Assembly (NCBI GenBank): GCA_947627715.1
Contig: CANQXK010000006.1
Location: 17,355 to 81,354, forward strand
Reading direction: 5' to 3'
Length of the DNA: 64,000 nucleotides
Source: an uncultured Oscillospiraceae bacterium
GTDB lineage: Bacteria > Bacillota > Clostridia > Oscillospirales > Oscillospiraceae
Positions within the stretch are counted from its first letter, which is position 1, and the number at the start of each line of letters is the position of its first letter. The position numbers and the translations under genes were made by a program. Under the pieces are notes generated by a model, which saw only the letters and a list, made by a program, of their open reading frames with translations, was not told the DNA's origin and searched no databases. Of the stretch, positions 7,901-26,997 are shown piece after piece.

Positions 7901-10900
7901 AACGTCCGTGCCTTCCAGCTTCTTCTCGCTATCACCATCTGTGGGGTCTTTGACCACGACGCTGCCCTTCGTTCCGTCCGAACCATCCGGGAAGATCACG
8001 TAACCCGACTCCAGCAGCGGGGGATTGCTCTTCTTTCCACTCTCTTCAGTACCGCTCTGCTTGAGGGTCGCGCCCTCCGCCCCGGCGGTCAGGGTATTGG
8101 GGTTTGCACCGCCATCATCGGTTATGGTGATGGACGAGTTGGGTCCGAGATCAAGACCCTTTTCGGGAATCTCATCGACTGTGACGTTACCGTTCCCGTC
8201 AACGGTGAAGGTAAGTTCACTGTCGCCGTTATTTTTATATGTATGCTCATTGCCATCGGCATCGGTGACGGTCAGGGTCTCGCCCGCGGGGACGGTGACC
8301 TTGGCCTTGCCGTCCTCCTGGACCTCGACCTTGACGGGATCCTTTGTGTCGCCATCAGGATCGGAATTACCGCTGCCAATCTCCACGCTGCCGAAGCCCA
8401 CGGACTCATCGTCGTCCAGGTCCACCGCGCCGGAGGTGATGTCGGGCTTGCCGTCCTCACCAATGACAAATTTGGTATTGCCCTCACCTTCGGGGACGCT
8501 GTACTCGGTCGCAGCTTCGCCCTCGCCGATTTCTACCGCGCCGCCGCTGGGGACGGTAACGGTGGGCTTGCCCTCAGCCTCGGTATCGGAACCGTTGACG
8601 GTGACGTCGCTTCCCTCGCCGCCCTTGTTGGTGACGGGGATATTCTTCTCATTCTCCCCTTCTCCGGCCTTGACGAGAATCGAAGCGTTAGTCTCCTCAT
8701 TTCCGGGGAGGGTCAAGGTGCCGCTGGTCAGAGTATTTCCGTCATCGTTGATCTCAATGACAAGAGGATCATCCCCGGCGTTGGTGTACTCGTCACCGCC
8801 GATTGTTACCTTGCCGTCTTCGGGCACAGTTACCGTGCCGGTTCCCTTTTCCTTATCGGCTCTAACGGTGATGTCTTTGTCGGTGTTGGGGTTGGTGACC
8901 TTTTCGCCGGCCACGTAGACAGAATTTTCGTGCGCTTCGGGGGTCCCGTCCTTCTTGGGCAGGGTGATCTCATCCTCCACCAGCTGGGCGTGGTCGCCTT
9001 TCTCGGCGTCCTTCACGAGGTCGAGCTTTGCGCCGGCCTCGCCAGCCGTATACTTGTTGTCATTGACCGTGACGGTATCGCCAGCGGGGACCTCCACCTG
9101 TCCGGCCACGTCGCCGTCGCCGCCCTTGGTGATCACGGTGTCGCCGGTGTTCCCCGCATCGGTCTTGACCGTGAAGCCGTCAGATTCAGTGCCGGTCACC
9201 TCAACAGTGGCCTCAGTTCCGCCGGGAATCGTGGCCTTTCCGCCGTCCTTAAGCCCGTCAAACGGCTTGTCCAGATCGTAGCCAGTATCTCCGCTGCCCT
9301 CGAACACCACGCCGTCAATGTCAACCGCAGTCTCCGGGTCGTCAGGCGTAACGGTGCCGGTTTTTTCCGCGCTATCAATATTAAAGGTAACAGGGCCTTC
9401 GGGAATGACGGTGTGATCTTCACCGTTGCCGTCTTTGACCTTCACGGAATTATCTTCCATGCCTTCGGGCAGGGCGTGGCTGTTGTCGCCCCGGTCAGGG
9501 TTAAACGTCACGGTTCCGTTTTCAACGGTGATCGTGCCGTCCGTCTCCACAGTGAGCGTGGCTTCAGCCCCGGCGGGCACAGTGTACGTCCGGCCATAGT
9601 AGTCCACAAAGGTCTTGGGGCCGGAGACGTTATTCCAGGTCTGCGCTTCATCCTTGGGAAGGCCCACGACGTTGACTGTGTTGTTGGCGGTCTGGTCATC
9701 TGTAAGGGCGTTCGTTGCCTCATCCACGTCGGTGCACATGGTGGAGCCGACCTGATAGACTACGGCCTTGGCGGTGCCGTCCGGGCCGACTACGACCGTG
9801 GCGGGACCATCAAATGTTTTGGGGCCTCCCTCTACTCCGTTGCCGGAGACTTGCGCACTGCCGCCGTCGGGAATCTCAATGACGGTATTGCCCTCGGTGG
9901 GATAGTCGTCCCTGACAAGCAGGTCCTTACTGCCGGTATTCTCAATCTTGGCATCATTGCCGCCATCACGGGGAAGGGTGACCTTCGCGTCAGAGGCTTC
10001 TTCGCTATCAGGCAGGACGATCTCGCCATCTTCCAGCGTCACGTCGCCGGAGGTGACGGCTTTGGAGCCGTCCGGGCGCAGCTCGACCTCGACCGGCTCT
10101 ACGCCGTTGTTGGAGTACACGTCGTCCCCGGTCTGCATCTTACCGCCAGCGGGGACGGTGACGGTGGCGCCATTTTCAGGCGAATCTGCATCAACGGTGA
10201 GTTGCGTGTCATCGTCCACGTTCTCAACCTTGACGTCCTCTTCGCCGACTTTGACGTGTACATCTTTCTCCGGGCCAACCTTCACGTCGCCGGATTCCAG
10301 CGTATAGACAGTAGGATCGCCTGTAGGATCAACCACAAGTACAGTGGGGCCTTCGGGAATCTCATACTCGCGTCCGTCAATTATTACCTTGCCGCCTGTT
10401 CCTTCGGGCGCGGTTACCTTGATATTACCGTCCTCGCTCTTTTCAACGGTAATATCCGTGCTGCCTGTATTCTCAACGACCTTGCCGTTGACCGTGACGG
10501 CGTTGTTGTGTTCACCGTCTTTCTTGGGCAGAGTGACGCTGCCCTCGGCAAGCTCCACGTGTCCCGCGCCCTCGCCTTCGTCCTTCACAAGGTCCAGCTT
10601 CGTGTTATCGGTCCCCTTGTAGCTGTTGTCGCCGACCTTGGCAGTCTTGCCGCTCTCAACCGTCGCCCGACCCACTTTGCCCGTGCCGTCTTCGCCGTCG
10701 GGAGCGGTCTTGGTCACTTCGGCTTCGCCGGTCACGGTAAGATTCGCATTGTCGCCGTCGGTCTTGAGGGTCTTGCCGGAGGGAACCGTCGCCGTCCCGT
10801 CAACCTCAAGCGCGGAATACGGGTCGTCAAGGGGGTATTCGGGGGCAGAGGGGCTGTTGAAGGTCACGCCGTCGATGGTGACGTTTTGAGCGGGCACACT

Positions 10901-12997: not shown

Positions 12998-13423
12998 TTA
13001 CTCCGCCTCGGACTTGAGATCCGCCAAAAGCTCCGCCGGGGAACACACACGCACGGGAGATTTTGCGTAGTCCCGCCCGTTGCGCGTAACGATGACGTCC
13101 ATCCCGGCGCGGAGGGCGGTTTCGACCATGAGCGCGTCCTCATAGTCCGAAACGTCCGACGAGATGGCCTTCCGGCAGTCGATCCCCGCCGTGTCCAGCA
13201 GGTCCAGCGGGATAAGCAGGGCGGAAAGCACCCGGCGGGCCTCCTTTCCGTCATGGGTGAAACGGTGAGTCAAATAGTAAATATCTGTAAGAGACTTGGC
13301 CGTCACAAACCCGTCAAAGCGCCGGTTGGCCGCCGCCAGAAACAGCGCGTAGGCATCGTCACAAAACGGCTCGCGCCGCCGCAAAAAGTCCACCACTACG
13401 CAGGTGTCCAGCAATACCCTCAT
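12998..13423 (-). CDS. vapC: PIN-domain toxin (VapC family)
   Basis: MRVLLDTCVVVDFL... shows the conserved N-terminal Asp, and the protein is 141 aa. A 4-nt ATGA overlap joins it to the upstream antitoxin gene. Confidence 0.85.
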   Translation of the reverse strand: MRVLLDTCVVVDFLRRREPFCDDAYALFLAAANRRFDGFVTAKSLTDIYYLTHRFTHDGKEARRVLSALLIPLDLLDTAGIDCRKAISSDVSDYEDALMVETALRAGMDVIVTRNGRDYAKSPVRVCSPAELLADLKSEAE

Positions 13424-13635
13424 ATCCTGTCAAGCCTCTCGTTCCGCGCTTCCTCCAGCGTCACGTCCGCCGGAAGGACCCCATAGAGGGACTTGACCAC
13501 GTCCACCCGGTCCTGATAGGGGTTGGTCAGCTTGGCGATGACTTTGCCGTTGCGGGTGATGTATATGTCCTCGCTCTCGGCAAGCTGGAGGTATTTTCCC
13601 AGATTGAGCTTTAATTCAGTGGAGGTGATCAACAT
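13420..13635 (-). CDS. Phd/YefM-type antitoxin
   Basis: MLITSTELKLNLGKYLQLAESEDIYITRNGKVIAKL... (71 aa). An AAGGGGG RBS precedes the ATG at 13633-13635. The upstream part of the ORF-track frame (to 13737) has no support. Confidence 0.8.
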   Translation of the reverse strand: MLITSTELKLNLGKYLQLAESEDIYITRNGKVIAKLTNPYQDRVDVVKSLYGVLPADVTLEEARNERLDRI

Positions 13636-13777: not shown

Positions 13778-16700
13778 TCACTTCTCTTCCGGCTCAAGCT
13801 GGCAATAGCGCATGAGGACCGCGGCCATCTCATTGCGCCGGGCATAGCCGCGAGGATCGAACACGCCGCTGTCCCGGCCCTTGATGACGCCGTTCATGTT
13901 GCACCACGCCACCGCCTCAATCGCCCAGTCGGACATCTTGTCAAGGTCGGTGAAGGGCAGGCGGTACATCCAGTCGCCCGTGAAGCCGCCCTGGCCGTAC
14001 TCCTGCTCGTAGCGGTAGAGCATGGCCGCCATCTGCTCGCGGGTGATGGGATCGTCCGGGCCAAACCTGTTGTTGCCGTAGCCGCCCGCGATTTCCTCGC
14101 TGGCCGCCCAGCGGATGGCCTCGGCGTACCACGCCCCCTCGCTGACGTCGGAATAGGTCATGTAATAGTTGACCACCGGGCTGCCGCTCATGTTCCACAG
14201 TACCATGACCATCTGGGCGCGGGTGACCGTGTCTTCGGGGAGGAAGCGGTCAACGCTTATGCCGTGCATCAGGTCATGGGCGAGGACATAATCGGTATAC
14301 TCATGGTACCAGGCGTTCACATCGAGGTCCGCAAACTTCCGGCCCGGACAGTTCTCGCCGCCGAGGCACTTGAAGACGGCCTTCACGGTGACGCCGCCAT
14401 AGGGCATCTTGAAGGTGTAGGTGCCGTCGCCGTTGTCGGTGAGGGCGACTTCCTTGCCGTCCTTGTCGGTGACGGTGAGTTCGCCCAGGGCGTAGCCCTC
14501 CTCCGGCGTTACGGTGAGGGTGACGGTGGAGCCGCGAAGGGCGTTGCGGTGATTGACCGTCACGCTGCCGTTCTCCACGCGCTCCGGGAGCTTCACGGTG
14601 TAGTAGACGCCGGTGCTCTGGGTCCAGGTCAGCACATATGTGGAGTAGAACTTCGCGTGGATCTCGATGGCCGTGCCGTCCCGGATGACCCTCAGATACT
14701 CGCCGTCCCTGTTGGCGGACGTGGTGATGGTCTGCATATCCGCACTACCGTCACCGTCCGTATCGTGGAAGCGGTAGACGGTGTAGCTGGACTTGCCCTG
14801 TATCTCCGCGGGCAGGTGGATCACGGTGGTGATGAGCTGTTTGGAGTCGTGAATCTCCGTGGTTCCGTCACTACTACTACCCGTCACCGTCTTTGTCAGC
14901 TCCAGATCGACCACCAGGCCGATGCGGTCCTCCGGCACGGGAACCTGCTCCTCCTGGGTGGAATTAAGCTCCGTGCCCTTGACGGTCATCTTGAACTCCA
15001 CAGAGCCGCCATTCTTGACTGTCTCTTCATCGTCAGTGGTGTATATCCCCTCGTCGGCGGTGGCGCTGGGAGTTTCCACGATTTCCTCCATGTCCACCAC
15101 GGCGGTGACGTCGGCCTCCACCACGGTGTTCAGCGCCCCGTCGGGCAGGATGTAGTCCCCGGTAAGGTTATCCTTTTCCACGTCCACCAGGAAGGTCTTG
15201 ACCACGGTGGAGCTTCCGTTAAAATAGCGGACCTCCAGGTTGTAGATGCCGGGCACAAGGTTTTTAAACGAGAAATTACCGTCGGCGTCGGTGATCGCCT
15301 CGCCAGCCTCGTTATCGCCCTGCTTCAGGGTCACTGTCGCGCCCAGCAGCGACTTGGGTTCGTTGCCCTCCACCTCCTGCTTCACGGTGCCGCCGACCGT
15401 GCGGGTCTCCTTCACGTCCAGCCACTCGGCCTTGAAGGTCACGTCGGAAGCCGGCATGGGGAACTCCTCGTTGGGCCGGTACGTGATGCCGCCGAAGCTC
15501 CATCCCTGGAAGAGGTAACCGTCGCGGGTCAGGCCCGCGGGGAGGATCACCATCTGGCCCTCAAGGAGGTTCTCCATGGCCTCAGGGGCCGCGCCGCCCT
15601 CATAACCGGCGTCGAAGGTGACCTTGTAGGTCTTGACGCTGGCGAGGTTGTTGGTGAGGACCAGCTCTCCCACCTTGTGGAACGCGCCGTCGGAGGTGGC
15701 GGAGTGGCGGAAGTTCGTGTTGCCGATTGCCACCCAGACCTCGTATGTTCCGGCATCGGTGGGCGTTACCTCCTCGCCGTTCTTCTTGTAGACGATCGTT
15801 GTATCAAGCTCCGACACGACCGCCGTTCCCGGATCGGGATACTGGTGGTCGGTGCCCTCGTCCTTATCCGGCGTTGTGGACACCACGCCCCAGACGGGGG
15901 TCAGCTTAACCTCGGTGGGGTGACTTTCATCAGTGAGATCCCACACGTTATTGCTCACGGTGAAGGTCACCGGCGCGGGGACGATGCTCACGGTCGCCGT
16001 GGGGTTCTTCACAGTGTAGTTCCCGGCGTTCTGGCCGTAGAGGCCCGCCGTCACGGTGTACTCCTTCACATCCGAGTCATCAGTGGCGGCGAAGGCCACC
16101 AGGTACGCACCGGAGTAGCTTTCGGGATTATCAATATTGAAATCGGAAGGCAGCCCCTGCCCCGGAGGCAGCTGTTTGTTATCGTTCTCGAAGGGATCCT
16201 GCACCCGAATGTCGGGGTGCATGGGGTGGGCGTGGTAGACGTAGCTCAGGTGGGTCCAGATCACCGTGACCTCGTAGGGCTTTATCTCGATCGTGCCGAT
16301 TTTCAACTCGCGGGTGGCGGTTTCCTGGTCGCTAAAGGCGTAGTTGTAGATGCCGTCAGCCGTGGGTGTGAAGGTCACGATGATGTCATACGTCCCGGCG
16401 TTGCGCACCTCGTTAACATCGGTGCTACCCTTGCGGTAGGTCACCTTGTAGCCGTTGCTGGCGGCGGCGTTGATGGCGACCGGCTCGCCCGTAGTCTGGC
16501 TCACGTTGGCCTTGTGGTTATAGCTGTCGTAGGTCATGGTGAGGGCGAAATCCGTGCCGCTGCCGGTGAGGGTGTAGCCGCCCAGGTTGGGATCGTCGTT
16601 GGTCTCGCCCCTTGTGGACCAGTCAACCTTGGCCTCCGCGCCGATGGTAAAGCTCACCGTGGCAGGGGCAATGGTGTATTCCTGAGAGTCGTCTGTAAGC

Positions 16701-19700
16701 GTGTAATTTGTGGCGTCCGCGCCCGCAAGGCTCGCTTTGGCGGTATAGGTCCCCGCGTCGGTCTCGGCGTTGCCGGAGAACGTAAGTCTGACGCTGCTGT
16801 TCTCTGTGTCTGCCGCCACAAAATCCGTTGTTGTGGCGGTGACGCTTACAGGTTCGCCGGAGTACACAAGATCAGTATACCCATCCCACGTCAATGTGAC
16901 CTCTTTGGCCGTGATCTTCGCGGTTGTCGCAGCATCGGAGATTGAACTCTCTTTAAGGGCGTAATCCGTGGAGTTATTGAGCGTGATGCCGGACACGTTG
17001 ACGTGCTTATTCTCCCCCACGTTCTTGTCGGTGAAGGTGAAGGTCCCTGTCGCGGTGGGCTTGTTGTCTTTGAACGGCACTATGTCCAGATTCTCAGCAA
17101 ATTTCAGCGTGCCGTTTTGGGCATTTACATTCCCATCGTAGGTCTTGCTGTCCACCGAATCCACCTGCGGCGTAAGCTGATAGGGATTGACGGTGATTGT
17201 CACAGTCGTTTTGAGCGTGGAGGTCTCAAAATTGCCCGCGTAGGTCTCACTGGGCGTAAAGACCGCCACATAGTCGTGACTCTTATCGGAGGGCTTGGGA
17301 TAGGTGTCAACCTGAATCTCCCACGCCCAGGTGCCGGGGATAGTCGCTCCGCCGTCGCCCGCAATCGTCGCCGTGCCGGTGAGATTGCTCTCGTTCAGCG
17401 TATCGCCGTATGTGATGGCGGAACCTGTGACCGTCAGCTCCAGCGTGGCCTGCTCGATGGTCATGGTGCCGACTTTGACCTTTCCTTGCTTACCTTCAAA
17501 CTCGTAGTTATTTTTGGCGTTGTCGCTGGTCAGCTCGACCCAAACGCCGTAAGTCCCAACGTTGGTCTCGCTCGGATTGGCGTCAGTCGTGCCTCTCTCA
17601 TCACTGTTGGCGCGGTAGGTAACGCTGTAATCGCTGCCCTGCGTCAGCGCGGGAGCGCCGCCGGTTTTGACCGTGACATCGCCCACGGTCTGCGGCTGCG
17701 TGGTATAGGTAAGCTCCATCGTGATATTATCCACGCTGACAGTGGCCTTTTTGATGGTGTAGGTCTGGGTCTTTACCTCGGGCAGGGTGTAGTTTGCATC
17801 ATCGCTAAGTGCGGCAGTGGCGGTGTAGGTATTCGCGTCTGTCTTGTCGCCATCGGTGACGGTGACGGTGCAGGGGTATTTCTCCACAGGGTTCGTCACT
17901 GTGGCCGTGACCGTGTGGGAGTTGCCATCGTAGGTAATCTCGAAAGCATTCTCGCCATCCAGCTTCCACTCAAGCATCACCACCCGCTTGCCGATGGACG
18001 CCGTGGTATTCTGCTTGCTGAGTTCCGTTGTGGTCAGCTCATAGTTGGCTCCCCAGTCGCCCGTCAGAGTGATGCCTGTGACGGTGACGGTCTTGTTCTC
18101 GCCGGCGGTGGGGGTATCGAAGTTGAATGTCCCCGTCGCCGTGGGGTTCTCGTCGCGCACCGCGCCGGTGAGCTTGATGGTCCCTGTGGTTTCGGTTTCG
18201 CCGCTGAACTGGTCGATGTTCTGAACAGTGTCGATGCTGGGCGTCAGCTTCGCCTTGTTGACGGTGATTGTGATGGTTTTGCTCAGGCTTTCGGAGGTAA
18301 AGTTGCTTGCATCACTGCTGGTGGGTGTAAACTTTACCGTGTACTCAGTGTTCTCACTGTCCTTACTAACACTGGGATATTTCGCGGCATCCGTCGTATC
18401 CCACGCCCAGGTGCCGGTGATTTCCGTGCCGTCACTGATCTTCGCCGTGCCGGTGAGTTCACTCGCGCTCAGCGTCTGCCCGTAGGTGATGGCAGAGCCG
18501 GTGACGGAGAGGGTCAGCTCGGCCTGCTTGATGGTCAGCTTGTCGTCCAGCTTCAGCTCGCGGGTCTCGTCGGCCTCGTCCTTAAACTTGAAGTTGTCGT
18601 TCTTGAGGGTAACGTAGATGTCGTAGGTGCCCACATTGGTCTTATTTGCGGTCTTATCTGCGGCTCCTTCCGTGCCATATGTAACGCTGAAATCGTCCTC
18701 GCTCAGTTTGGGGGTCTCGCTGTCAGTCTGCTTCACCGTGGCGGTGTGGGCCTTGGTGTCGTAGGTGACCGTGTAATCCGTCACCTCAAAGCTCACCGGG
18801 GCTTTCTTGATGGTGAAATCCTGCGTGGGGTTATCATCAGGCAACTTATAGTTCCCCGCCGCGCTCCCGGTGAGCTGTGTGGCCTCAGCTGTGTAGCTCC
18901 CGGCGTTGGTTGCAGTTGCGCCGGTCGCCCCAGTCTCGCCGCCGTTGGCCTTTACCTCCACGGTCACATTGACCTCATCGCCGCTTTCCTTGTTGTTAAC
19001 GGTGGCAGTGATGGTATGCGCCGATCCAGTGTAGGTCAGGCTCTCGTGGCCCGTCCACGTCAGCGTGACCTCTTTCTGCTCAATCTGAACGGTGATGCTG
19101 TCGGGATCAGTGTCGTTGTGGTTATCGTCGCCCACGACCTTATACCACACGGTATACGTCCCCGCGTCCTTGCCGGTGATAGCGTCGGAGTCTTGCCAAA
19201 CTACATCTGCGCCGGGTTGAGTCGCAACGCCCTTCTCGCCGACATAATACTTCATCGTGCCGCCAGTGGCACTTCCAACGGTTTCAATCAACTTCTGATT
19301 CCCGCCGTTGTACACAAGGCCGCTCTCACCTGTTGGCTCGGACATACTACTTTCGGCCTTGGCGATTTCTATGCTATTGCTGGTAGCCTCTCCCGGCGTA
19401 TAGTACTTCGCGTCTTTACCCTTCAATGAAGAGACTGTCACCGTGACAGGTTTGTTCTTCCCGACATTTGCATCGTTGGCTTTGGCGGTAAAGGAATCGA
19501 CCTCCACCGCGTCGCCACTCACAAGCTGACTCGAAAAATCAGCAAAATTGCCGCTGACATTCTCGTTACCGTCGTATGTCTTATTACTCGCGTTAAATGT
19601 AAACGTCAGCGTCTTCTGGCTGACTTTCACTTCAGTTGCGTCGCTGGTTTTCTCAGTGATGTTGTTATTCCCGCTGTAAGCAGCGGTGACGCTCACAGTC

Positions 19701-22700
19701 CCGTTCTCGCCGAAAAGTGTATGCTGCTTCTCCTGATCGTTCGCCTCGATTGTCAGCGTCGCCTTGCCAGAAGCATCCACGTTCACGGCGGCGCCGAAGT
19801 TTTCGCCGCCAACCTTAAACTGCACCGTTGCGCCGCTGAATTTGTCGGCGGTGATGGAGCCGGACGTGACCTTTGCCGTCAGAGTGAAGTTGCTGCCGTA
19901 GGTGGCGGAATCCACTTCGCCGACGGTGACCGTCGATTCGGCTTTGCTGATTTCGACTGTCCCGACTTTCGTCGGCCCCACGTCCGCGTGGTTCCCGTCG
20001 CCGGTGACCTTATACCACACTTCGTATGTCTTTGCGTCGGTCCCGGTGGGAACGTCGTCCTGATAAACGCCTGCCTCCGAAAGGCTGTACTGAATTGTAC
20101 CGTCCTTGGTGTCTCCAGCGTCCACCAGCTGTTGCGCCTCGCCGGTGTAGACGAGTCCAGTCTTCGCCGTTGGCGCGGTATAGCTTGGCGTTTCCTTGCT
20201 TATGGTTGCCGTGACGCTCTGAGGTATCGTGTCGTTGTGGTTATCATCACCCTTGACATAGTACCAGATAGTGTACTCCTTGGCATCTGTGCCCTTGATG
20301 GTAGAAGCATCCTCTGTCCAGCTATCAGCCGTTGTGCCGGGGTTTGTAGTCCCTAAATAGTACTTCATCGTACCGCCTGTAGCCGTACCGGCGGTAATCA
20401 GCTCTTGCGCTACGCCAGTATATTTAAGCTCCTTCCCCGTGGGTGCGGAAAACTCTGTAATATCCGCCTTGCTGATGTTCACCGTCACGCCTGCGGGATT
20501 CGTGGCCTTGTAATAGTCCGCATCGTCCCCGGCCAGCGTGACCACCACCGTGACTTCCTTGTCAGTTCCCGCGTCAGCGTCGTTCATTTCAGCGGAGTAA
20601 TTCGCCGTCACGGTATCGGTGCCCACAAGCCCCGTGGTTACTTTGCCAGTTTCGTCCGTCTCGTTCAACTTTCCCGTTATAGTTGTATTGCCCGCCTCAT
20701 AGTCACGGGGTTCCGGCGTGAACGTAAACGTCAGCGGCTTGGGGTTCACCGTGACGGTGATCTTGGTGGTGCCCTGTTTCAGGTTGTCGCCCCCGCCATA
20801 GTTGACGGTTACGGTATTATCCGAACCTGCGTTGAAGTAGTTTTTAACTTGGTCCGCCGAGATTGTGACGGTGGCTTTGCCTCCCTCGGCAGGAATATTA
20901 TCAACAATCTCCGTTTTGCCGCCCTTCGGGAACACAAACTCAACCTGATTTGCCTCTGCGCTGGTGAGCGCAATGCCCGCCGCAGCCGCCTTATTCGGCG
21001 CGACCGTGACCTCAAGCGTGATTCCGCTCTCGTTGCCATAATCGTAAGTAATTGTACCCTGAGTCGGCGTAATATCAGCATCGGACTGGCCTATAGTCAC
21101 ATTGACAGTCCCGCTGGTCCCGTTAGTATAGGTATAATTATCCGTGTCCGCGCCGTCTATCTTCCAGTAGACAGTATAAGAGCCAACATCTTTCCCTGTC
21201 GGAACGTCCGTTGAATAATCTCCAGCCTCATCAAGGCTGTACTGCATCTCGCCGCAGCCCGAAACACTTGAAACACTTTCAACGCTTCCCGCGTCGATCA
21301 GCTCCTGCGCCGTGCCGGTGTAGGTCAGCGGCGCCTTTGCCGTGGGCGGGGTCACCGTGGCCGGGGCCTTGGCGATGGTCACCTTGACCGTGAGCGTCAC
21401 AGCTTCCGTGCCGTAGCTATCCACGCTCATAAGCGAATACTGCGGCGTTTTTTCCGTTGCCGTAACAGTAATCGTATAATCATTCGCGTTAAGCCCTGTG
21501 GGAACTGACAGCGTATTCTCGTTTTCTATGCTCGCGTTCGTGTTGCCCTTATCGCTTATTGCGTATGTAAACTTACCCGCAGCCTCAACATCCTCGTTCG
21601 CGTACTTCATATGCTCGTCCAAATTGACCGTAAGTGGCGCCTTGTAGCCGTAAGTCTCACTCAGCGTAATGTCCGCACTGTCTCCGCCGAAATGGTCGCG
21701 TCCCACGGCGTACACCGTCATATCCTCGGTAACGGGGGTTTCCTCGTCAAACTTTTCACCGTCCGCGTTCTGCGTCTTTGCCCACTTCTCAAACGTATAA
21801 TTATCCTTTACGGGGGTTTCCGGCATTTCCACAGTGCCGTTCGGATTTGTATATTTCGCGTCGTATGCCTCGTTTTCCTGCGTCGCGAACGTAACCTTCA
21901 AAACCTTTTTACTTTCCTCACTCGTAAGCACGGGGTAATCGTCCGCCTCGTCGCTGAGCTTCTGCCCCCACGCTTGCGGCTCCTGCTTGTTTTGCAGCAG
22001 CCACGCCACCTCGCCGGAATTAAACGCGTCCTCCGTTTTTGACGTGCCTTCACCTTTCGCGCCGCAGGTATCGAGGTAGTAGCAATTTTCGATGCTGCCG
22101 CCGGAGTTATATCCCGCAATGCCGCCAATACTGGTGTTTGTGTTGCTGCTTACCGTTCCCGTGTTATAGCAATTTTTAACGCTGCCGGAATTAGATCCCG
22201 CAATGCCGCCTATTCTACTATAGGAACTGGAACTGCCTTTTATCGCGCCCGCGTTACAGCAATTTTCAATGCTGCCGCCCTCGTTGTATCCCGCAATGCC
22301 GCCTACAGCGTAGCTGCCGTTTACCGCGTTCGTGTTACAGCAATTTTCGACGCTGCCGCCATTGTTGTATCCCACAATGCCGCCTACATCGTTTTTGCCT
22401 GTGACGCTGCCCGAAACGGTGAGATTTTTGATCGTGCCGGTGGAAAACCCAAACAGACCTTGGTAATCATCCGTAGTGTTTATGTAAATTCCGCTTATCG
22501 TGAAGTTGCCACCGTCAAATGTGCCGTTAAACGGCTTTCCAAACGTTCCGATGGGCGTCCATGATGTGCCGCTCGCGCTGTACTTTGACGACATATCTAT
22601 CTTCGCCGTCTGCTCAAAATATTCACCGCTGCCGCCGTTCGCATCAGTGTTAATATATTCACAAAACGCCTCCAGGTCGGTAAGGTTTGCGATTTTGTAC

Positions 22701-23734
22701 GGATCGCCCTCAGTACCCATACCGCCGCCCGTGCCCGCAAATTCGGCGTTCGCCGTAAGCAAGGGACGACCTAAAGCGGCGCAGTCATACCACACTTTCA
22801 ATCCGTCGTTGAGTGTCGACGCGAGTGTCTTAAATCCCTCGGCATTCTTTTTCTCAACCTTTTCCACCGTACCCTCTTCGTCGCCGATACCCTTTTCCGC
22901 CGTACCTGTAAGATAATAGCAGATTGATACCGTTCCGTATCCTCCCGTTCCCGCAATACAGCCGACGGCAGCGGCACCGCCGACGGCAAGCGTTATATTG
23001 CCCACGTTATAGCAGCTCATTATCGCTTGGTGATTTTTACCAACAATACCGCCCGTTCCGTCAGAACTGTCTGTCGAACTGTTTGTAATATTGCCCGTGT
23101 TATAAGAGTTGATTATAGATCCATATGAATTCATTCCCACAATGCCGCCGATCGAACCCTTTCCGGTGATATTTACGCTGCTGTAACAGCTTTCTATTCT
23201 GCAATTACCGCTGTTTTGTCCCACGATGCCACCGATAGCAGTTACATCGGCAGTACTGTTTATTGAACCCGATACGCCGAGATTGCTTATCGCGCCTCCG
23301 TCGCCGATGATGCTGCCTGTCGTTCCAAATAAGCCTACATATGTAACGGTATTATCGGTATATAACAACGACACTTTTATCGTATGACCGGCTCCGTCAA
23401 ATTCACCGTTAAACCCTGTTGACGACGTTCCTATCGGCGTCCAACTGTTACCGCCCGCGTACTTTTCGGACATATCTATATTCGCCGTCAGCTTGAAATA
23501 CTCGCCCTTGCCGCCGTCAGCATCCGCGTTGATATAGTCCCGGAACTTCTCAAGGTCGTCAAGATTGGAAATAAGATACGGTTCATCCTCCGTGCCGCTG
23601 CCGCCCGAGCCGACAAATTCCGCCGACGCGGCGATTTCCGCCACTCCGCCGGGCTGATCCGCCCACGCCGCCGTGGGGAGCAGGGTAAAGACCATCCCTA
23701 TGGCCAGCAACGCGCTCATAATCCGTTTTTTCAT
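13778..23734 (-). CDS. Giant (3318 aa) cell-surface protein: signal peptide, two tandem GLUG-repeat head domains, Listeria-Bacteroides-type repeats, more than 20 Ig/MBG-like repeats, CarboxypepD_reg-like domain, three C-terminal SLH domains
   Basis: - Signal peptide: MKKRIMSALLAIGMVFTLLPTAAWA.
- GLUG repeats: GGIVGxNxGxIxNCYNTG.
- Listeria-Bacteroides repeats: ...DNYTFEKWAK and DGYLFQGWSF.
- Repeating motifs L(T/V)YTGxAQEL and Y(T/E)VWYKVxGDDNHND.
- SLH motifs: FADLDVNAWYHEYTDYVLAHDLMHG, YSDVSEGAWYAEAIRWAASEEIAGGY, MSDWAIEAVAWCNMNGVIKG. Confidence 0.9.
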   Translation of the reverse strand: MKKRIMSALLAIGMVFTLLPTAAWADQPGGVAEIAASAEFVGSGGSGTEDEPYLISNLDDLEKFRDYINADADGGKGEYFKLTANIDMSEKYAGGNSWTPIGTSSTGFNGEFDGAGHTIKVSLLYTDNTVTYVGLFGTTGSIIGDGGAISNLGVSGSINSTADVTAIGGIVGQNSGNCRIESCYSSVNITGKGSIGGIVGMNSYGSIINSYNTGNITNSSTDSSDGTGGIVGKNHQAIMSCYNVGNITLAVGGAAAVGCIAGTGGYGTVSICYYLTGTAEKGIGDEEGTVEKVEKKNAEGFKTLASTLNDGLKVWYDCAALGRPLLTANAEFAGTGGGMGTEGDPYKIANLTDLEAFCEYINTDANGGSGEYFEQTAKIDMSSKYSASGTSWTPIGTFGKPFNGTFDGGNFTISGIYINTTDDYQGLFGFSTGTIKNLTVSGSVTGKNDVGGIVGYNNGGSVENCCNTNAVNGSYAVGGIAGYNEGGSIENCCNAGAIKGSSSSYSRIGGIAGSNSGSVKNCYNTGTVSSNTNTSIGGIAGYNSGGSIENCYYLDTCGAKGEGTSKTEDAFNSGEVAWLLQNKQEPQAWGQKLSDEADDYPVLTSEESKKVLKVTFATQENEAYDAKYTNPNGTVEMPETPVKDNYTFEKWAKTQNADGEKFDEETPVTEDMTVYAVGRDHFGGDSADITLSETYGYKAPLTVNLDEHMKYANEDVEAAGKFTYAISDKGNTNASIENENTLSVPTGLNANDYTITVTATEKTPQYSLMSVDSYGTEAVTLTVKVTIAKAPATVTPPTAKAPLTYTGTAQELIDAGSVESVSSVSGCGEMQYSLDEAGDYSTDVPTGKDVGSYTVYWKIDGADTDNYTYTNGTSGTVNVTIGQSDADITPTQGTITYDYGNESGITLEVTVAPNKAAAAGIALTSAEANQVEFVFPKGGKTEIVDNIPAEGGKATVTISADQVKNYFNAGSDNTVTVNYGGGDNLKQGTTKITVTVNPKPLTFTFTPEPRDYEAGNTTITGKLNETDETGKVTTGLVGTDTVTANYSAEMNDADAGTDKEVTVVVTLAGDDADYYKATNPAGVTVNISKADITEFSAPTGKELKYTGVAQELITAGTATGGTMKYYLGTTNPGTTADSWTEDASTIKGTDAKEYTIWYYVKGDDNHNDTIPQSVTATISKETPSYTAPTAKTGLVYTGEAQQLVDAGDTKDGTIQYSLSEAGVYQDDVPTGTDAKTYEVWYKVTGDGNHADVGPTKVGTVEISKAESTVTVGEVDSATYGSNFTLTAKVTSGSITADKFSGATVQFKVGGENFGAAVNVDASGKATLTIEANDQEKQHTLFGENGTVSVTAAYSGNNNITEKTSDATEVKVSQKTLTFTFNASNKTYDGNENVSGNFADFSSQLVSGDAVEVDSFTAKANDANVGKNKPVTVTVSSLKGKDAKYYTPGEATSNSIEIAKAESSMSEPTGESGLVYNGGNQKLIETVGSATGGTMKYYVGEKGVATQPGADVVWQDSDAITGKDAGTYTVWYKVVGDDNHNDTDPDSITVQIEQKEVTLTWTGHESLTYTGSAHTITATVNNKESGDEVNVTVEVKANGGETGATGATATNAGSYTAEATQLTGSAAGNYKLPDDNPTQDFTIKKAPVSFEVTDYTVTYDTKAHTATVKQTDSETPKLSEDDFSVTYGTEGAADKTANKTNVGTYDIYVTLKNDNFKFKDEADETRELKLDDKLTIKQAELTLSVTGSAITYGQTLSASELTGTAKISDGTEITGTWAWDTTDAAKYPSVSKDSENTEYTVKFTPTSSDASNFTSESLSKTITITVNKAKLTPSIDTVQNIDQFSGETETTGTIKLTGAVRDENPTATGTFNFDTPTAGENKTVTVTGITLTGDWGANYELTTTELSKQNTTASIGKRVVMLEWKLDGENAFEITYDGNSHTVTATVTNPVEKYPCTVTVTDGDKTDANTYTATAALSDDANYTLPEVKTQTYTIKKATVSVDNITMELTYTTQPQTVGDVTVKTGGAPALTQGSDYSVTYRANSDERGTTDANPSETNVGTYGVWVELTSDNAKNNYEFEGKQGKVKVGTMTIEQATLELTVTGSAITYGDTLNESNLTGTATIAGDGGATIPGTWAWEIQVDTYPKPSDKSHDYVAVFTPSETYAGNFETSTLKTTVTITVNPYQLTPQVDSVDSKTYDGNVNAQNGTLKFAENLDIVPFKDNKPTATGTFTFTDKNVGENKHVNVSGITLNNSTDYALKESSISDAATTAKITAKEVTLTWDGYTDLVYSGEPVSVTATTTDFVAADTENSSVRLTFSGNAETDAGTYTAKASLAGADATNYTLTDDSQEYTIAPATVSFTIGAEAKVDWSTRGETNDDPNLGGYTLTGSGTDFALTMTYDSYNHKANVSQTTGEPVAINAAASNGYKVTYRKGSTDVNEVRNAGTYDIIVTFTPTADGIYNYAFSDQETATRELKIGTIEIKPYEVTVIWTHLSYVYHAHPMHPDIRVQDPFENDNKQLPPGQGLPSDFNIDNPESYSGAYLVAFAATDDSDVKEYTVTAGLYGQNAGNYTVKNPTATVSIVPAPVTFTVSNNVWDLTDESHPTEVKLTPVWGVVSTTPDKDEGTDHQYPDPGTAVVSELDTTIVYKKNGEEVTPTDAGTYEVWVAIGNTNFRHSATSDGAFHKVGELVLTNNLASVKTYKVTFDAGYEGGAAPEAMENLLEGQMVILPAGLTRDGYLFQGWSFGGITYRPNEEFPMPASDVTFKAEWLDVKETRTVGGTVKQEVEGNEPKSLLGATVTLKQGDNEAGEAITDADGNFSFKNLVPGIYNLEVRYFNGSSTVVKTFLVDVEKDNLTGDYILPDGALNTVVEADVTAVVDMEEIVETPSATADEGIYTTDDEETVKNGGSVEFKMTVKGTELNSTQEEQVPVPEDRIGLVVDLELTKTVTGSSSDGTTEIHDSKQLITTVIHLPAEIQGKSSYTVYRFHDTDGDGSADMQTITTSANRDGEYLRVIRDGTAIEIHAKFYSTYVLTWTQSTGVYYTVKLPERVENGSVTVNHRNALRGSTVTLTVTPEEGYALGELTVTDKDGKEVALTDNGDGTYTFKMPYGGVTVKAVFKCLGGENCPGRKFADLDVNAWYHEYTDYVLAHDLMHGISVDRFLPEDTVTRAQMVMVLWNMSGSPVVNYYMTYSDVSEGAWYAEAIRWAASEEIAGGYGNNRFGPDDPITREQMAAMLYRYEQEYGQGGFTGDWMYRLPFTDLDKMSDWAIEAVAWCNMNGVIKGRDSGVFDPRGYARRNEMAAVLMRYCQLEPEEK

Positions 23735-23868
23735 TATCCCATCCTCGCTTTCATATTGGTAGTTTAAGTTCGTTCGGTCCGTGGAACCCCACGGACCGGG
23801 CTGGGCCGGCCCAGCCTTGATGAAAATTTTTCATTACGCACTTGACAAATCACATTTCTTCATTTATC

Positions 23869-23899
23869 ATTATATCATGTTCACCCGTGAACAAGTCAA
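23869..23899 (-). promoter_or_regulatory. MerR-type promoter of giant gene 2 (19-bp spacer containing a perfect dyad)
   Basis: On the minus strand: TTGACT (23894-23899), a 19-nt spacer, then TGATATAAT (23869-23877). The spacer holds TGTTCAC-GG-GTGAACA (23878-23893). A divergent plus-strand promoter overlaps it: TTGACA (23842-23847), 17 nt, TATCAT (23865-23870). Confidence 0.6.
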
Positions 23900-23917
23900 G
23901 AGAGAAAGCGAAAAAAG

Positions 23918-24022
23918 TTGAATAATTTTTTCTCGATCAATCAGGTGGGCCAGAGCTGCGGAGTGTCCCGGTCTACGCTCCTGCGGCTGGAGGAACGCGG
24001 GCTGCTCACCCCGGCCAGTTAG
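23918..24022 (+). pseudogene. Truncated MerR-family regulator (only the N-terminal HTH, 34 codons)
   Basis: (TTG)NNFFSINQVGQSCGVSRSTLLRLEERGLLTPAS* matches the MerR N-terminal HTH pattern (I.evA...GVS..TLR.YE..GLL.P) and then stops. The effector and dimerisation parts are missing. Confidence 0.65.
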
Positions 24023-24107
24023 TCAGCGCCGCTCCCGCCCTCAGCCGCATGAAAGGCCGGGAAATACCGATTTTTGATGCGGCGGAGGTAAAAATAGGCG
24101 CAGAAAA

Positions 24108-24144
24108 CTTAAGCCGCAAAACGATTGCTTTTTTGCGGCTTAAG
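24108..24144. terminator. Hairpin (bidirectional terminator-like)
   Basis: A 14-bp perfect stem (CTTAAGCCGCAAAA/TTTTGCGGCTTAAG), flanked by A and T runs. Confidence 0.6.
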
Positions 24145-24147
24145 TTT

Positions 24148-24569
24148 TTATGCCATTTTCAAACAAATGTCTTGTATTTTCGACGCGCTTTCGGACAGCT
24201 TCACGATGTCGCGGGTGACGCGGTAGAACATCCGGGCGAACAGATGCCGCAGGTTGTGGGGGAACACCTTGGAGCGTTCCACCCCCCTCTTCGCACAGGG
24301 CCTTCATCTCCGCCCAGATCTGCCGCCGCGTCAGCCCCTTTCCGCTTCTGGTGAGAAAAGATCTCGCCGGAGGCGATTTTTTGTTGCCTGGCGTACTTTA
24401 TAAGCTTCCGGCACAGCTTGCCGGGGAGCATGATGCCGCGAATTTTCCCCTTGAGGGAGATCTGCGTCTGGCCGTCCCGCGCCGCCTCCACGGTGATATA
24501 CTGTACTTCGCTGACACGGATGCCGGTGGAGCAGATGGTCTCCATCAAGAGCGCCAACCGGGGCGTCAT
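24148..24569 (-). pseudogene. Tyrosine recombinase (phage-integrase family) remnant: N-terminally truncated, frameshifted, and lacking the C-terminal Tyr region
   Basis: One frame reads TPRLALLMETICSTGIRVSEV...KGKIRGIMLPGKLCRKLIKYARQQKIASGEIF. A second frame continues ...GVERSKVFPHNLRHLFARMFYRVTRDIVKL and then diverges to a stop at 24148-24150. Confidence 0.7.
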
Positions 24570-24741
24570 TGTCAATATGAATGAGATCACCAGCATGGAC
24601 CTGGAGACCTGCGCCCTGTCCGACGGCTCTGTCCTGCCCGTGAAGCAGAAGGACCGCGCCGTCATAAGGAAGCAGTACAGCGACTTCCTCTTCCACGAGC
24701 TTCACCTTATGGCCGCGTCAAAGAGGAGGGAGAAGCCGTGA
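24570..24741 (+). pseudogene. C-terminal fragment of a LytTR-family response regulator (5' part replaced by the integrase remnant)
   Basis: ...IVNMNEITSMDLETCALSDGSVLPVKQKDRAVIRKQYSDFL... fits the end of a LytTR DNA-binding domain. No receiver domain lies upstream. Its stop overlaps the GTG start of the downstream kinase (GTGA). Confidence 0.55.
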
Positions 24742-26114
24742 CCCTGTTGCTCTATCTCGTTGAGGCGGTGGGGTTCCTCTTTCAGTTCCTCCCCTGCGCC
24801 ATCATGTGCTTCGTGCCCTTTGACGACGACAAGCTGAAAATACGCAAGAGGACCCTGTTCCTTTTGCTGACTCTCTGCGTCCTCGCCGTCTCGGCGCTTT
24901 TCCCCTTCGCGGCCCACGCGGTCCCGACCCTCGACGTCATGATACACATTGCAGACTCCTATATGCTCCTTGTTGTGGTCGTCTCCGTCGCGGCTTACGG
25001 CGTCCTCGTCCGGGAGCATATCATGAAAAAGCTCCTTGTTATCTACATCATCATTTTCTACGCGGCGCTTATATTCTGGCTGACGAACCTCGTGGGGTCG
25101 ATCTGGGACCCGCTCTTCCCCCGCTTTCCCGACGACACCCTGTCGGTCTACCTCCCCAAACATCTGGCGTTTTACCTCCTGTCCTATGTGACCATTTTGC
25201 CGGTGTTCGTGATCTTCCTGCGCCGCTATGTGTCCTCCTTTTTGCGGGAGATCGAGCCGCAGCGGCTGAAGCGGGAGTTCCGCTACGCCACTATCTCCAC
25301 CGTCTCCTTCCTCATCCTCATGATGACCGCCCATACGCTCTTTGATATATACCCGTACAACTTCCTGTTAAATTCCCTGCTTCTCTTCCTGGTGCTGAAT
25401 CAGGCCATCCTGTACTGGATGATCGTTACCAGCGCCGTGAACCGCTCCCGCGAGGAGACCGCCCACCGCGCCCTTGAGGCGCAGAAGCTCCAGTACGACC
25501 GCATCAGCGCCGACATGGAGCGCACGGCGCGGCTCCGGCACGATATGCGCCACCACTGGAATTACCTCTATTCCCTGGCGGAGGAGGGGGACCTTACGAA
25601 GATGAGGTCGTACCTGTCGGCCCTGGCGGAGCAGACGGGACATCTGCAAAACGAGGTGTTCTGCGAAAATCCCACCGTGAACGCCCTCTTGCAGTACTAC
25701 GCGGAACGGGCCAGGAGCGACGGGGTGACCTGCACCGTGGCGGCCCAGTGCGGCGAGCTTGACGTGCGGCCGGAGGACCTGACGGTGATGGTGGGGAATG
25801 TGATGGAAAACGCCCTGACCTCCTACATGAAAGCGCCGGAGCCGCGGAAGATGGAGGTGGCTGTGGGGCAGTTCCACGGGTCCTTCACGCTGGAGGTCAC
25901 CAACTCCTGCCCAGGGGTCCGAGTCTCCAGGGGCTTTACGCCGGACGCGGAGGGCTTCCTGCCCGCCGGGGCCTTCCAGAGCACCCGGAACGGCGGCGGC
26001 CACGGCATGGCGTCGGTGGCGGACCTGGCAAAGGTCTACTCCGGCTCCGCCACGTTTAAGTTCGACCCGGAGAGAATGGTATTCGTGTCGAGGATCATAT
26101 TGAATCGGGCGTAG
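24738..26114 (+). CDS. AgrC/VirS-like (HPK10-type) membrane sensor histidine kinase
   Basis: About 6 N-terminal transmembrane helices, an H-box RLRHDMRHHWNYL, and a GHKL ATPase region (VMENAL...NGGGHGMASV). Confidence 0.8.
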   Translation: MTLLLYLVEAVGFLFQFLPCAIMCFVPFDDDKLKIRKRTLFLLLTLCVLAVSALFPFAAHAVPTLDVMIHIADSYMLLVVVVSVAAYGVLVREHIMKKLLVIYIIIFYAALIFWLTNLVGSIWDPLFPRFPDDTLSVYLPKHLAFYLLSYVTILPVFVIFLRRYVSSFLREIEPQRLKREFRYATISTVSFLILMMTAHTLFDIYPYNFLLNSLLLFLVLNQAILYWMIVTSAVNRSREETAHRALEAQKLQYDRISADMERTARLRHDMRHHWNYLYSLAEEGDLTKMRSYLSALAEQTGHLQNEVFCENPTVNALLQYYAERARSDGVTCTVAAQCGELDVRPEDLTVMVGNVMENALTSYMKAPEPRKMEVAVGQFHGSFTLEVTNSCPGVRVSRGFTPDAEGFLPAGAFQSTRNGGGHGMASVADLAKVYSGSATFKFDPERMVFVSRIILNRA

Positions 26115-26200
26115 AGGGACCGTCAGGGTCCCCCCCTCGAAATTAATAGCAGCTCCACAAGAAAACGCACCAGTCCGCGGACTGGTGCGTTTTCTTGTGG
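26115..26200. repeat. Copy A of an ~86-bp double-hairpin module (second copy at 47659-47750)
   Basis: About 90% identical by eye to the sequence flanking the 3' end of tRNA-Thr. It contains GGGACC-GTCA-GGTCCC and a 23-bp perfect stem (26153-26175 / 26178-26200). It sits between convergent genes, so it probably also acts as a terminator. Confidence 0.7.
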
Positions 26201-26256
26201 AATAAGTGGTTAAAAGTCCTATTATTGAGAAAGCCTTGCGACGCAAGGGATTTGGG

Positions 26257-26997
26257 TTATTGGTTCATCCAGCCAAAGAGTGCGCTCCAGTAGTTGAGTA
26301 TCAGCATGGCTCCGCCGAGGAGGGTCAGCACGGCGCCGGTGGCAAGTCCCACGGTGCGTGCGGGGACACGGTTGGCAAACCGGGCGGACAGAAGGCTGGA
26401 GACCGTGGCAACGGCGATGCACAGGATCATCACATCCCACTTTTCCAGTACGATGGCCGGGTGGATGAAGATGTGGCTAACGGAGGCAATCAGGGCCGTG
26501 AAGGTCATGATGAAGGTGCTGGTTCCCACCGCCGTCTTCAGCTCCATGCCCAGGAACGCCGTGAAGGCTACCAGCATCATCATTCCGCCGCCGGTGCCCA
26601 CAAAGCCCGTTCCGAAACCGATTGTCAGCCCGAAAAAGAGGGAGATGACCACGCCTTTCCAGTCCAGCCTCTGGCCCCTTGCCGCCTGATGCTCCCGGCT
26701 GGTGTCGGGCTTTACCAGGAAGCGGATGCCGATGAAAAAGGTGAGAAAAAGAGTGAAGCTCCCCAGCACCACATTCCCCGCCAGGTACGCCACGTAGCTG
26801 CCCACGGTGCTCATGGCAAGGATGCACACCAGCATGATCCATCCTCGTCGGAGGTCGATGTTTTTGTGCCTTGCGTATGTCCAGGTGGTGACGGCGGAGC
26901 CCAGGATGTCCGAGGCCAGGGCGATGGCCGTGGCTTGGTAGACCCCCGTCTCCCCGGAGAAAGAAGGACACAGTACGATCAAAATCGGCACCATCAC
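26257..26997 (-). CDS. TSUP (TauE/SafE) family membrane transporter, possibly 5'-truncated
   Basis: A polytopic membrane protein with GTGFVGTGGGMMM and other Gly-rich TM motifs typical of TauE/SafE. The in-frame upstream sequence (GIGTGLAGLSAATV) continues the family's first conserved motif but has no start codon. Confidence 0.75.
   Translation of the reverse strand: MMVPILIVLCPSFSGETGVYQATAIALASDILGSAVTTWTYARHKNIDLRRGWIMLVCILAMSTVGSYVAYLAGNVVLGSFTLFLTFFIGIRFLVKPDTSREHQAARGQRLDWKGVVISLFFGLTIGFGTGFVGTGGGMMMLVAFTAFLGMELKTAVGTSTFIMTFTALIASVSHIFIHPAIVLEKWDVMILCIAVATVSSLLSARFANRVPARTVGLATGAVLTLLGGAMLILNYWSALFGWMNQ

Follow-up and report, generated by a model that had tools for sequence, protein, structure and literature searches.

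The closest known counterparts of the control region reported here are BmrR of Bacillus subtilis and EcmrR of E. coli, multidrug-sensing regulators that join a winged helix-turn-helix and a coiled coil to a GyrI-like ligand pocket, and whose target promoters have a TTGACT −35 hexamer and a 19 bp spacer with a pseudo-palindrome inside it. This class is documented to activate by distorting the spacer, and cryo-EM shows that the regulator puts a kink in the 19 bp spacer and under-twists it, such that the −35 hexamer and the −10 realign (PMC8113463, PMC9909328). In the mer systems of Tn21 and Tn501 the regulator and target promoters are divergent and overlapping, the target promoter again has a 19 bp spacer with a 16 bp MerR-binding symmetric sequence at −31 to −16, and without MerR the classical promoter is not activated (PMC11049809). 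MerR of mer is also positioned to repress its own promoter, and senses Hg(II) with cysteines in a short C-terminal region. The MerR-like BrlR of Pseudomonas aeruginosa binds c-di-GMP and pyocyanin, is tied to the biofilm lifestyle, and activates efflux pumps. MerR-family control of a surface adhesive structure occurs in E. coli and Salmonella, where the MerR-like MlrA activates csgD and curli.

The locus described here shares the 19 bp spacer, the TTGACT hexamer and the spacer-borne palindrome with BmrR and EcmrR targets, and the divergent overlapping promoters with mer. It differs from the former in that the regulator family is only 15–19% identical to BmrR and EcmrR, adjoins genes for Flg_new/SLH giants, GGDEF cyclases or ECF-sigma operons rather than efflux pumps, and has lost its regulator gene in the DNA studied; from mer in having a 150 aa GyrI-like domain as sensor and a consensus extended −10 where the mer −10 hexamer is weak; and from BrlR in the adjoining genes, although some family members do lie beside GGDEF cyclase genes. 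MlrA acts indirectly through csgD, has another C-terminal domain and promoter layout, and is not divergently paired with a structural gene. The mechanism is thus of the known MerR kind, in the BmrR/EcmrR class, and the novelty lies in the subfamily and its operator, in its pairing with giant surface proteins and other surface-lifestyle genes, and in the regulator having been lost repeatedly; because the mechanism is an established one, the gain is in biology and annotation and not in principle. Uncultured gut Clostridia commonly encode giant SLH-anchored surface proteins, and to our knowledge almost nothing is known about their control. The initial annotation of this DNA knew of no description of MerR control of a giant surface protein, and the literature we searched likewise yielded none, whether for SLH or giant surface proteins under MerR-type control or for MerR together with an adhesin, nor any account of this subfamily, its operator or the recurrent regulator loss.

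The giant-gene promoter and its predicted operator

The target gene (13778–23734, minus strand) lies within the 64 kb stretch of DNA that was analyzed (the window), and is a single ORF predicted from the ORF list and a domain search to encode a 3318 aa secreted surface protein with a signal peptide, GLUG, Flg_new, Big_3_5 and YDG domains, and three C-terminal SLH domains; an exact look-up found no record of the protein. Reading of the sequence upstream places a −35 hexamer TTGACT at 23894–23899 and an extended −10, TGATATAAT, at 23869–23877, both on the minus strand. TATAAT occupies 23874–23869 and is directly preceded by TGn (TGA, 23877–23875), a consensus extended −10. Between the two hexamers lie 19 bp (23893–23875, minus strand), and spacer positions 1–16, corresponding to −31 to −16, are filled by the dyad TGTTCA-CGGG-TGAACA (minus-strand reading; TGTTCACCCGTGAACA, 23878–23893), which is a perfect 7-2-7 palindrome. 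Two features of MerR-type promoters are therefore present, the over-long spacer, which recurs in every related promoter matching the pattern, and a 16 bp dyad-symmetric operator within it. The initial annotation had proposed the 19 bp spacer, a perfect dyad occupying 16 of its positions and a MerR-type geometry; the coordinates are borne out on direct reading, and both spacer and dyad placement are kept in relatives with the same arrangement as in mer. Its 7-2-7 description of the operator holds for the window dyad, but the family-wide operator is 6-4-6.

A second promoter, TTGACA-17-TATCAT, reads in the opposite direction (23842–23870, plus strand; TTGACA 23842–23847, TATCAT 23865–23870), matches at 11 of 12 positions in a promoter scan, and leads toward the merR remnant. 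Its −10 shares 2 bp with that of the giant gene, so the promoters, already recognized as divergent and overlapping in the initial annotation, are mutually exclusive for RNA polymerase. With the transcription start placed from the −10, the operator would lie at about +1 to +16 of the merR promoter, a position from which, as in mer, the regulator could repress its own synthesis. The divergent promoter is retained in L001, L002 and L005, and is degenerate in L003, where merR is gone.

The dyad taken singly is statistically unremarkable. A search of the 64 kb window with up to three mismatches gave two matches against 2.2 expected by chance, and a search for TGTYCA-N4-TGRACA with up to one mismatch gave this site as the sole match (0.37 expected), with no second operator of that type in the window. 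The weight of the case therefore comes from conservation among relatives.

The inferred 5′ UTR of the giant gene is about 128 nt (23735–23862, minus strand; start placed from the −10 position) and contains two perfect GC-rich hairpins (23800–23815 and 23776–23797) with no trailing T-run. The predicted fold is −42.6 kcal/mol (z = −2.84), and an Rfam search of 23600–24200 returned chance-level matches only. These hairpins might be mRNA stabilizers or another leader element. We note that GC-rich palindromes of differing sequence are present in the leaders of L002, L007, L008 and L011, downstream of the promoter.

The merR remnant and the intact regulator

The plus-strand ORF at 23918–24022 has a TTG start, 34 codons and a TAG stop (translation LNNFFSINQVGQSCGVSRSTLLRLEERGLLTPAS), and the ORF list together with tblastn resolves it into 33 authentic codons encoding a helix-turn-helix, one junction codon, and the stop. 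Thirty-two of its 33 N-terminal residues are identical to those of P0068, an intact 265 aa MerR encoded at L005, the only difference being the alternative start codon position; the P0068 gene has the same TTG start and upstream sequence. When the L005 protein was compared with the window by tblastn, only residues 1–33 matched (23918–24016), and neither further merR segments nor a MerR paralogue was found elsewhere in the 64 kb.

Comparison with L005 by blastn shows what happened to the remainder of the gene. Window positions 23811–24018 correspond to L005 5889–6101 at 89% identity, and 24019–24190 to L005 6841–7011 at 92% identity, such that 739 bp of L005 (6102–6840) are absent at the 24018/24019 junction. 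The missing segment comprises codons 35–265, the stop codon and 42 bp beyond, and the junction falls inside codon 34, where AGG has become AG|T with TAG immediately after; the junction read-out revealed no microhomology. A second deletion of 185 bp (L005 7012–7196) lies 170 bp from the first, at 24190/24191 in a decayed integrase gene. A bidirectional terminator-like hairpin at 24104–24148, read from the sequence and not among the sites of a simple terminator scan, has a counterpart in L005 that comes after the intact merR. The window ORF thus ends at codon 34 without the coiled-coil dimerization helix, and the C-terminal GyrI-like effector domain is deleted, in agreement with the initial annotation, which had considered both parts gone. 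Judged from its sequence, the window copy is a deletion remnant and not a functional member of the family, and lacking both the dimerization helix and the ligand domain it cannot act as a regulator.

The identity of the remnant is not apparent from the stub alone. All of its Pfam matches are below their cut-offs, the best being AbiEi_4 (24.7 bits), with MerR at 21.9 bits against a cut-off of 28.2 and MerR_1 at 18.6 against 21.6. The intact orthologue at L002, by comparison, scores 45 bits with MerR_1 (cut-off 21.6) and 29.8 with MerR (cut-off 28.2). An AbiEi antitoxin identity was ruled out, as the intact orthologues are clear MerR_1 proteins, and the proposal in the initial annotation that the ORF is a MerR helix-turn-helix stands on these orthologues and on the near-identity to the L005 protein, the stub itself being sub-threshold in the profile search. 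A HMMER search with the stub over 1.8 billion representatives gave 67 matches, most of them N-terminal, 55–70% identical, and in proteins no longer than about 285 aa. The best phmmer matches (P0001–P0005) are odd tandem-HTH proteins of 600–2100 aa, four of them with 5–10 separate HTH-like stretches.

Two other interpretations of the stub were discarded. Loss of an ATG start, suggested by L002, was ruled out because L005 and many intact genes start with TTG; such a start is normal for this MerR subfamily and no sign of decay. Continuation of merR in another frame was also ruled out, as the sequence past 24018 is the region downstream of merR in L005; a composite query of the stub plus the frame-shifted continuation (..RMKGREIPIFDAAEV..) had no match. 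TTG starts are common in the subfamily (L007, L020 and many others), and gene callers began P0071 and P0108 at an internal Met, giving products of 244 and 242 aa with the HTH cut off.

Intact regulators are present at the same position in relatives. Three rabbit-gut Oscillospiraceae MAG loci were retrieved when the giant protein's N-terminus was used as query. The divergent gene of L002 encodes an intact 268 aa protein beginning MKKLDTFFSINQVSRSCGVSRSTLLRLEERGLLTPAKVDGETGYRWYD, and P0068 is likewise divergent in L005, as are regulators at other loci. Homologues of the L002 protein form 381 clusters (E ≤ 1e-10), nearly all of about 265 aa, among which P0068, on loci L005 and L006, is the closest. 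A 31-sequence family profile searched against the PDB matched EcmrR (6xl5_G, E = 1e-12) over residues 10–242; designer PPR proteins that topped this search were discarded as sums of many weak repeat matches. The AlphaFold model of P0068 (mean pLDDT 90.5) has a coiled coil in helix 79–104, and Foldseek ranks full-length EcmrR, BrlR (the second best) and BmrR as its top matches in the PDB. Compared alone by Foldseek, the EcmrR C-terminal domain matches the model with a TM-score of 0.80, normalized by target length. As modeled, the intact regulator has the BmrR architecture, in which a winged HTH and a coiled coil are followed by a GyrI-like ligand pocket. Every NCBIfam model stays below its cut-off for this MerR subfamily, which is therefore uncharacterized.

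Conservation of the operator and its partner genes

The same promoter layout, consisting of the −35 hexamer, the 16 bp dyad, 3 bp and the −10 hexamer, is common to the window, L001–L003 and nine further loci (13 of 13). In a second set of loci, from MerR homologues on metagenome contigs, 16 of 21 have it; these include all of those at ≥49% MerR identity, together with L043 and L045 at 42%. The five without the pattern are four full-length homologues of about 42–45% MerR identity (L041, L042, L044 and L047) and L046, a fragment at the end of a contig that has just 70 bp upstream. The dyad thus recurs in the same place in the 19 bp spacer in both sets, and there are 22 distinct loci in which the layout accompanies an intact regulator gene. 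A scan of metagenome contigs for the exact promoter pattern gave no matches.

Among 25 distinct promoters, TTGACT is present in 23 (the exceptions being L001, TTGACC, and L007, TTGAGA), and the 25 distinct operators give the consensus TGTYCA-N4-TGRACA. Operator positions 4 and 13 are T:A in 13, C:G in ten and mixed in two. At the outermost pair, L011 has both bases altered (CGTTCA..TGAACG), and six other operators have just one. There is also a suggestive correspondence with the regulator sequences, in that Arg at MerR residue 8 is found only with TGTCCA..TGGACA (C:G) operators (5 of 5), and Asn, Ser or Gly at this position accompany T:A operators (TGTTCA..TGAACA). This pairing would represent protein-DNA co-variation, although it is confounded by phylogeny and the TGTCCA..TGGACA group may derive from only one or two events. 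Residue 8 (window codon 23939–23941) is a candidate specificity contact.

In nine of the ten lineages whose genomic context was sampled, merR is divergent from genes for large Flg_new/SLH or other extracellular proteins, directly or via an operon. A large Flg_new/SLH protein is opposite merR in L002, L005, L007, L008, L011, L022, L026, L027 and L035, a Flg_new/Cu_amine_oxidN1 protein in L017, and a dockerin protein in L043. The partner in L020 is an ECF-sigma-led operon ending in SLH giants, and in L024 an operon led by unannotated genes that ends in an SLH giant; the operons in L029 and L030 start with an ECF sigma factor, with no SLH domain detected in the portion scanned. Exceptions to the surface-protein partner are L014, L031 and L034, where merR faces GGDEF diguanylate cyclases. 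The other flank of merR varies from locus to locus, and the regulator, operator and surface-related gene therefore constitute a conserved module. From their sequences, the GGDEF, ECF-sigma and dockerin partners suggest a wider surface-lifestyle role for the MerR/operator unit. A more speculative extension, which we put forward tentatively and hold to be somewhat doubtful, is that this GyrI-like, ligand-sensing subfamily is a dedicated surface-lifestyle switch of gut Oscillospiraceae, with one conserved operator directly gating giant SLH adhesins, c-di-GMP cyclases and ECF-sigma operons, and with recurrent, independent loss of the sensor adaptively locking adhesin expression. The comparison provides a concrete candidate regulator-operator pair, a 265 aa BmrR/EcmrR-like sensor with a 16 bp site in a 19 bp spacer, as well as a range of adjoining genes (adhesins, diguanylate cyclases and ECF sigma factors), and the close relatives supply natural knock-outs of the regulator.

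Regulator loss and its possible consequences

Five close relatives (the window, L001, L002, L003 and L005) were compared for the state of merR, and a working gene is absent in three of them, each by a different route. In the window it is the 739 bp deletion; in L001 two frameshifts have spread merR over three frames; and in L003 there is a replacement, in which the leader is kept to about the start codon and is followed by a RelB antitoxin/YafQ toxin pair (L003 5168–5705). The giant-gene promoter is kept in all three. The L003 operator (TGCTCA..TGAACA) has one uncompensated change, at a core position. All three merR-defective loci have TGn with a perfect TATAAT, compared with four of the 22 intact loci (a hand-computed Fisher value of about 0.015, with the defective loci related to each other), and this could reflect compensation for loss of the regulator or a pre-condition for it.

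We regard it as probable that 23842–23899 is a bidirectional MerR-type control region whose regulator gene has been deleted, with the cis switch lost. By analogy with the MerR family, TGTYCA-N4-TGRACA, at −31 to −16 in the surface-protein promoter, would be bound by a dimer of the intact regulator. The 19 bp spacer would leave the −35 hexamer out of register with the −10, and the ligand-bound form would activate transcription by kinking and under-twisting the spacer. Lying at about +1 to +16 of the merR promoter, this bound dimer would also provide autoregulation. With deletion of the regulator in the window, the giant-gene promoter would have lost its cis-encoded switch and the divergent promoter, now derepressed, would compete with giant-gene transcription. 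As the likeliest outcome we favor signal-blind transcription driven by the consensus extended −10, which is less dependent on alignment with the −35, given that all three merR-defective loci have TGn and TATAAT, compared with the minority of intact loci. Alternatively, the promoter could be nearly silent, as mer is without MerR.

A different possibility, already raised in the initial annotation, is that the promoter is regulated in trans by a MerR paralogue of the same subfamily encoded elsewhere in the genome, the cis copy having become dispensable. The window dyad, which matches the family consensus, is perfectly symmetric and so perfectly preserved that it argues mildly for continued use, and the three merR-defective loci have all kept promoter and dyad. 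The subfamily is also large (the 381 clusters), with many members having the same operator, making cross-recognition plausible. However, neither a paralogue nor a second operator is within the 64 kb window, and the uncompensated core change in the merR-less L003 is as expected of early decay; we consider regulation in trans a serious but rather unlikely alternative to loss of the switch. A further possibility is that the truncation is an assembly or sequencing artefact, with the gene intact in the organism. The source does look like a metagenome-type assembly, and the relatives are MAGs and Logan contigs, but the junction is clean with 89% and 92% identity on its two sides, a separate 185 bp deletion is only 170 bp away, and the independent losses in L001 and L003 show that such loss occurs in the clade, so that an artefact is very improbable.

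The least probable of the explanations, with hardly any likelihood in our view, is that the dyad binds some unrelated factor or folds into a small hairpin of the merR leader RNA, its spacer position being incidental. Symmetric changes in the palindrome are as compatible with a hairpin, in RNA or DNA, as with a site for a dimeric protein, and a hairpin would show compensated changes equally. Against this, the dyad accompanies this MerR gene in the 22 distinct intact loci, with the other merR flank differing where the neighborhood was examined; the 19 bp spacer is invariant among pattern-matching promoters; the MerR-binding symmetric sequence of mer has the identical placement, at −31 to −16 (PMC11049809); Arg at residue 8 follows the operator type; and a 6 bp stem with a 4 nt loop is a weak RNA element. 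A MerR-type control region deprived of its regulator is our preferred reading.

The surroundings of the control region include several other features. The giant gene is the second of two tandem giant SLH genes (1931–12781 and 13778–23734), between which a PIN_3 toxin (141 aa) and a Phd/YefM-like antitoxin are encoded (12998–13635, minus strand). The first of these giant genes has an ordinary promoter, TTGTCA-17-TATAAT, with no dyad. On the other side, 24140–33300 is a mosaic stretch rich in mobile elements, containing the decayed tyrosine-integrase gene, a GHKL-domain ORF, TauE, ribosomal protein L1, a serine recombinase and an IS3-type transposase, as well as a low-GC patch (35–40%) that carries a TNT-like toxin domain.
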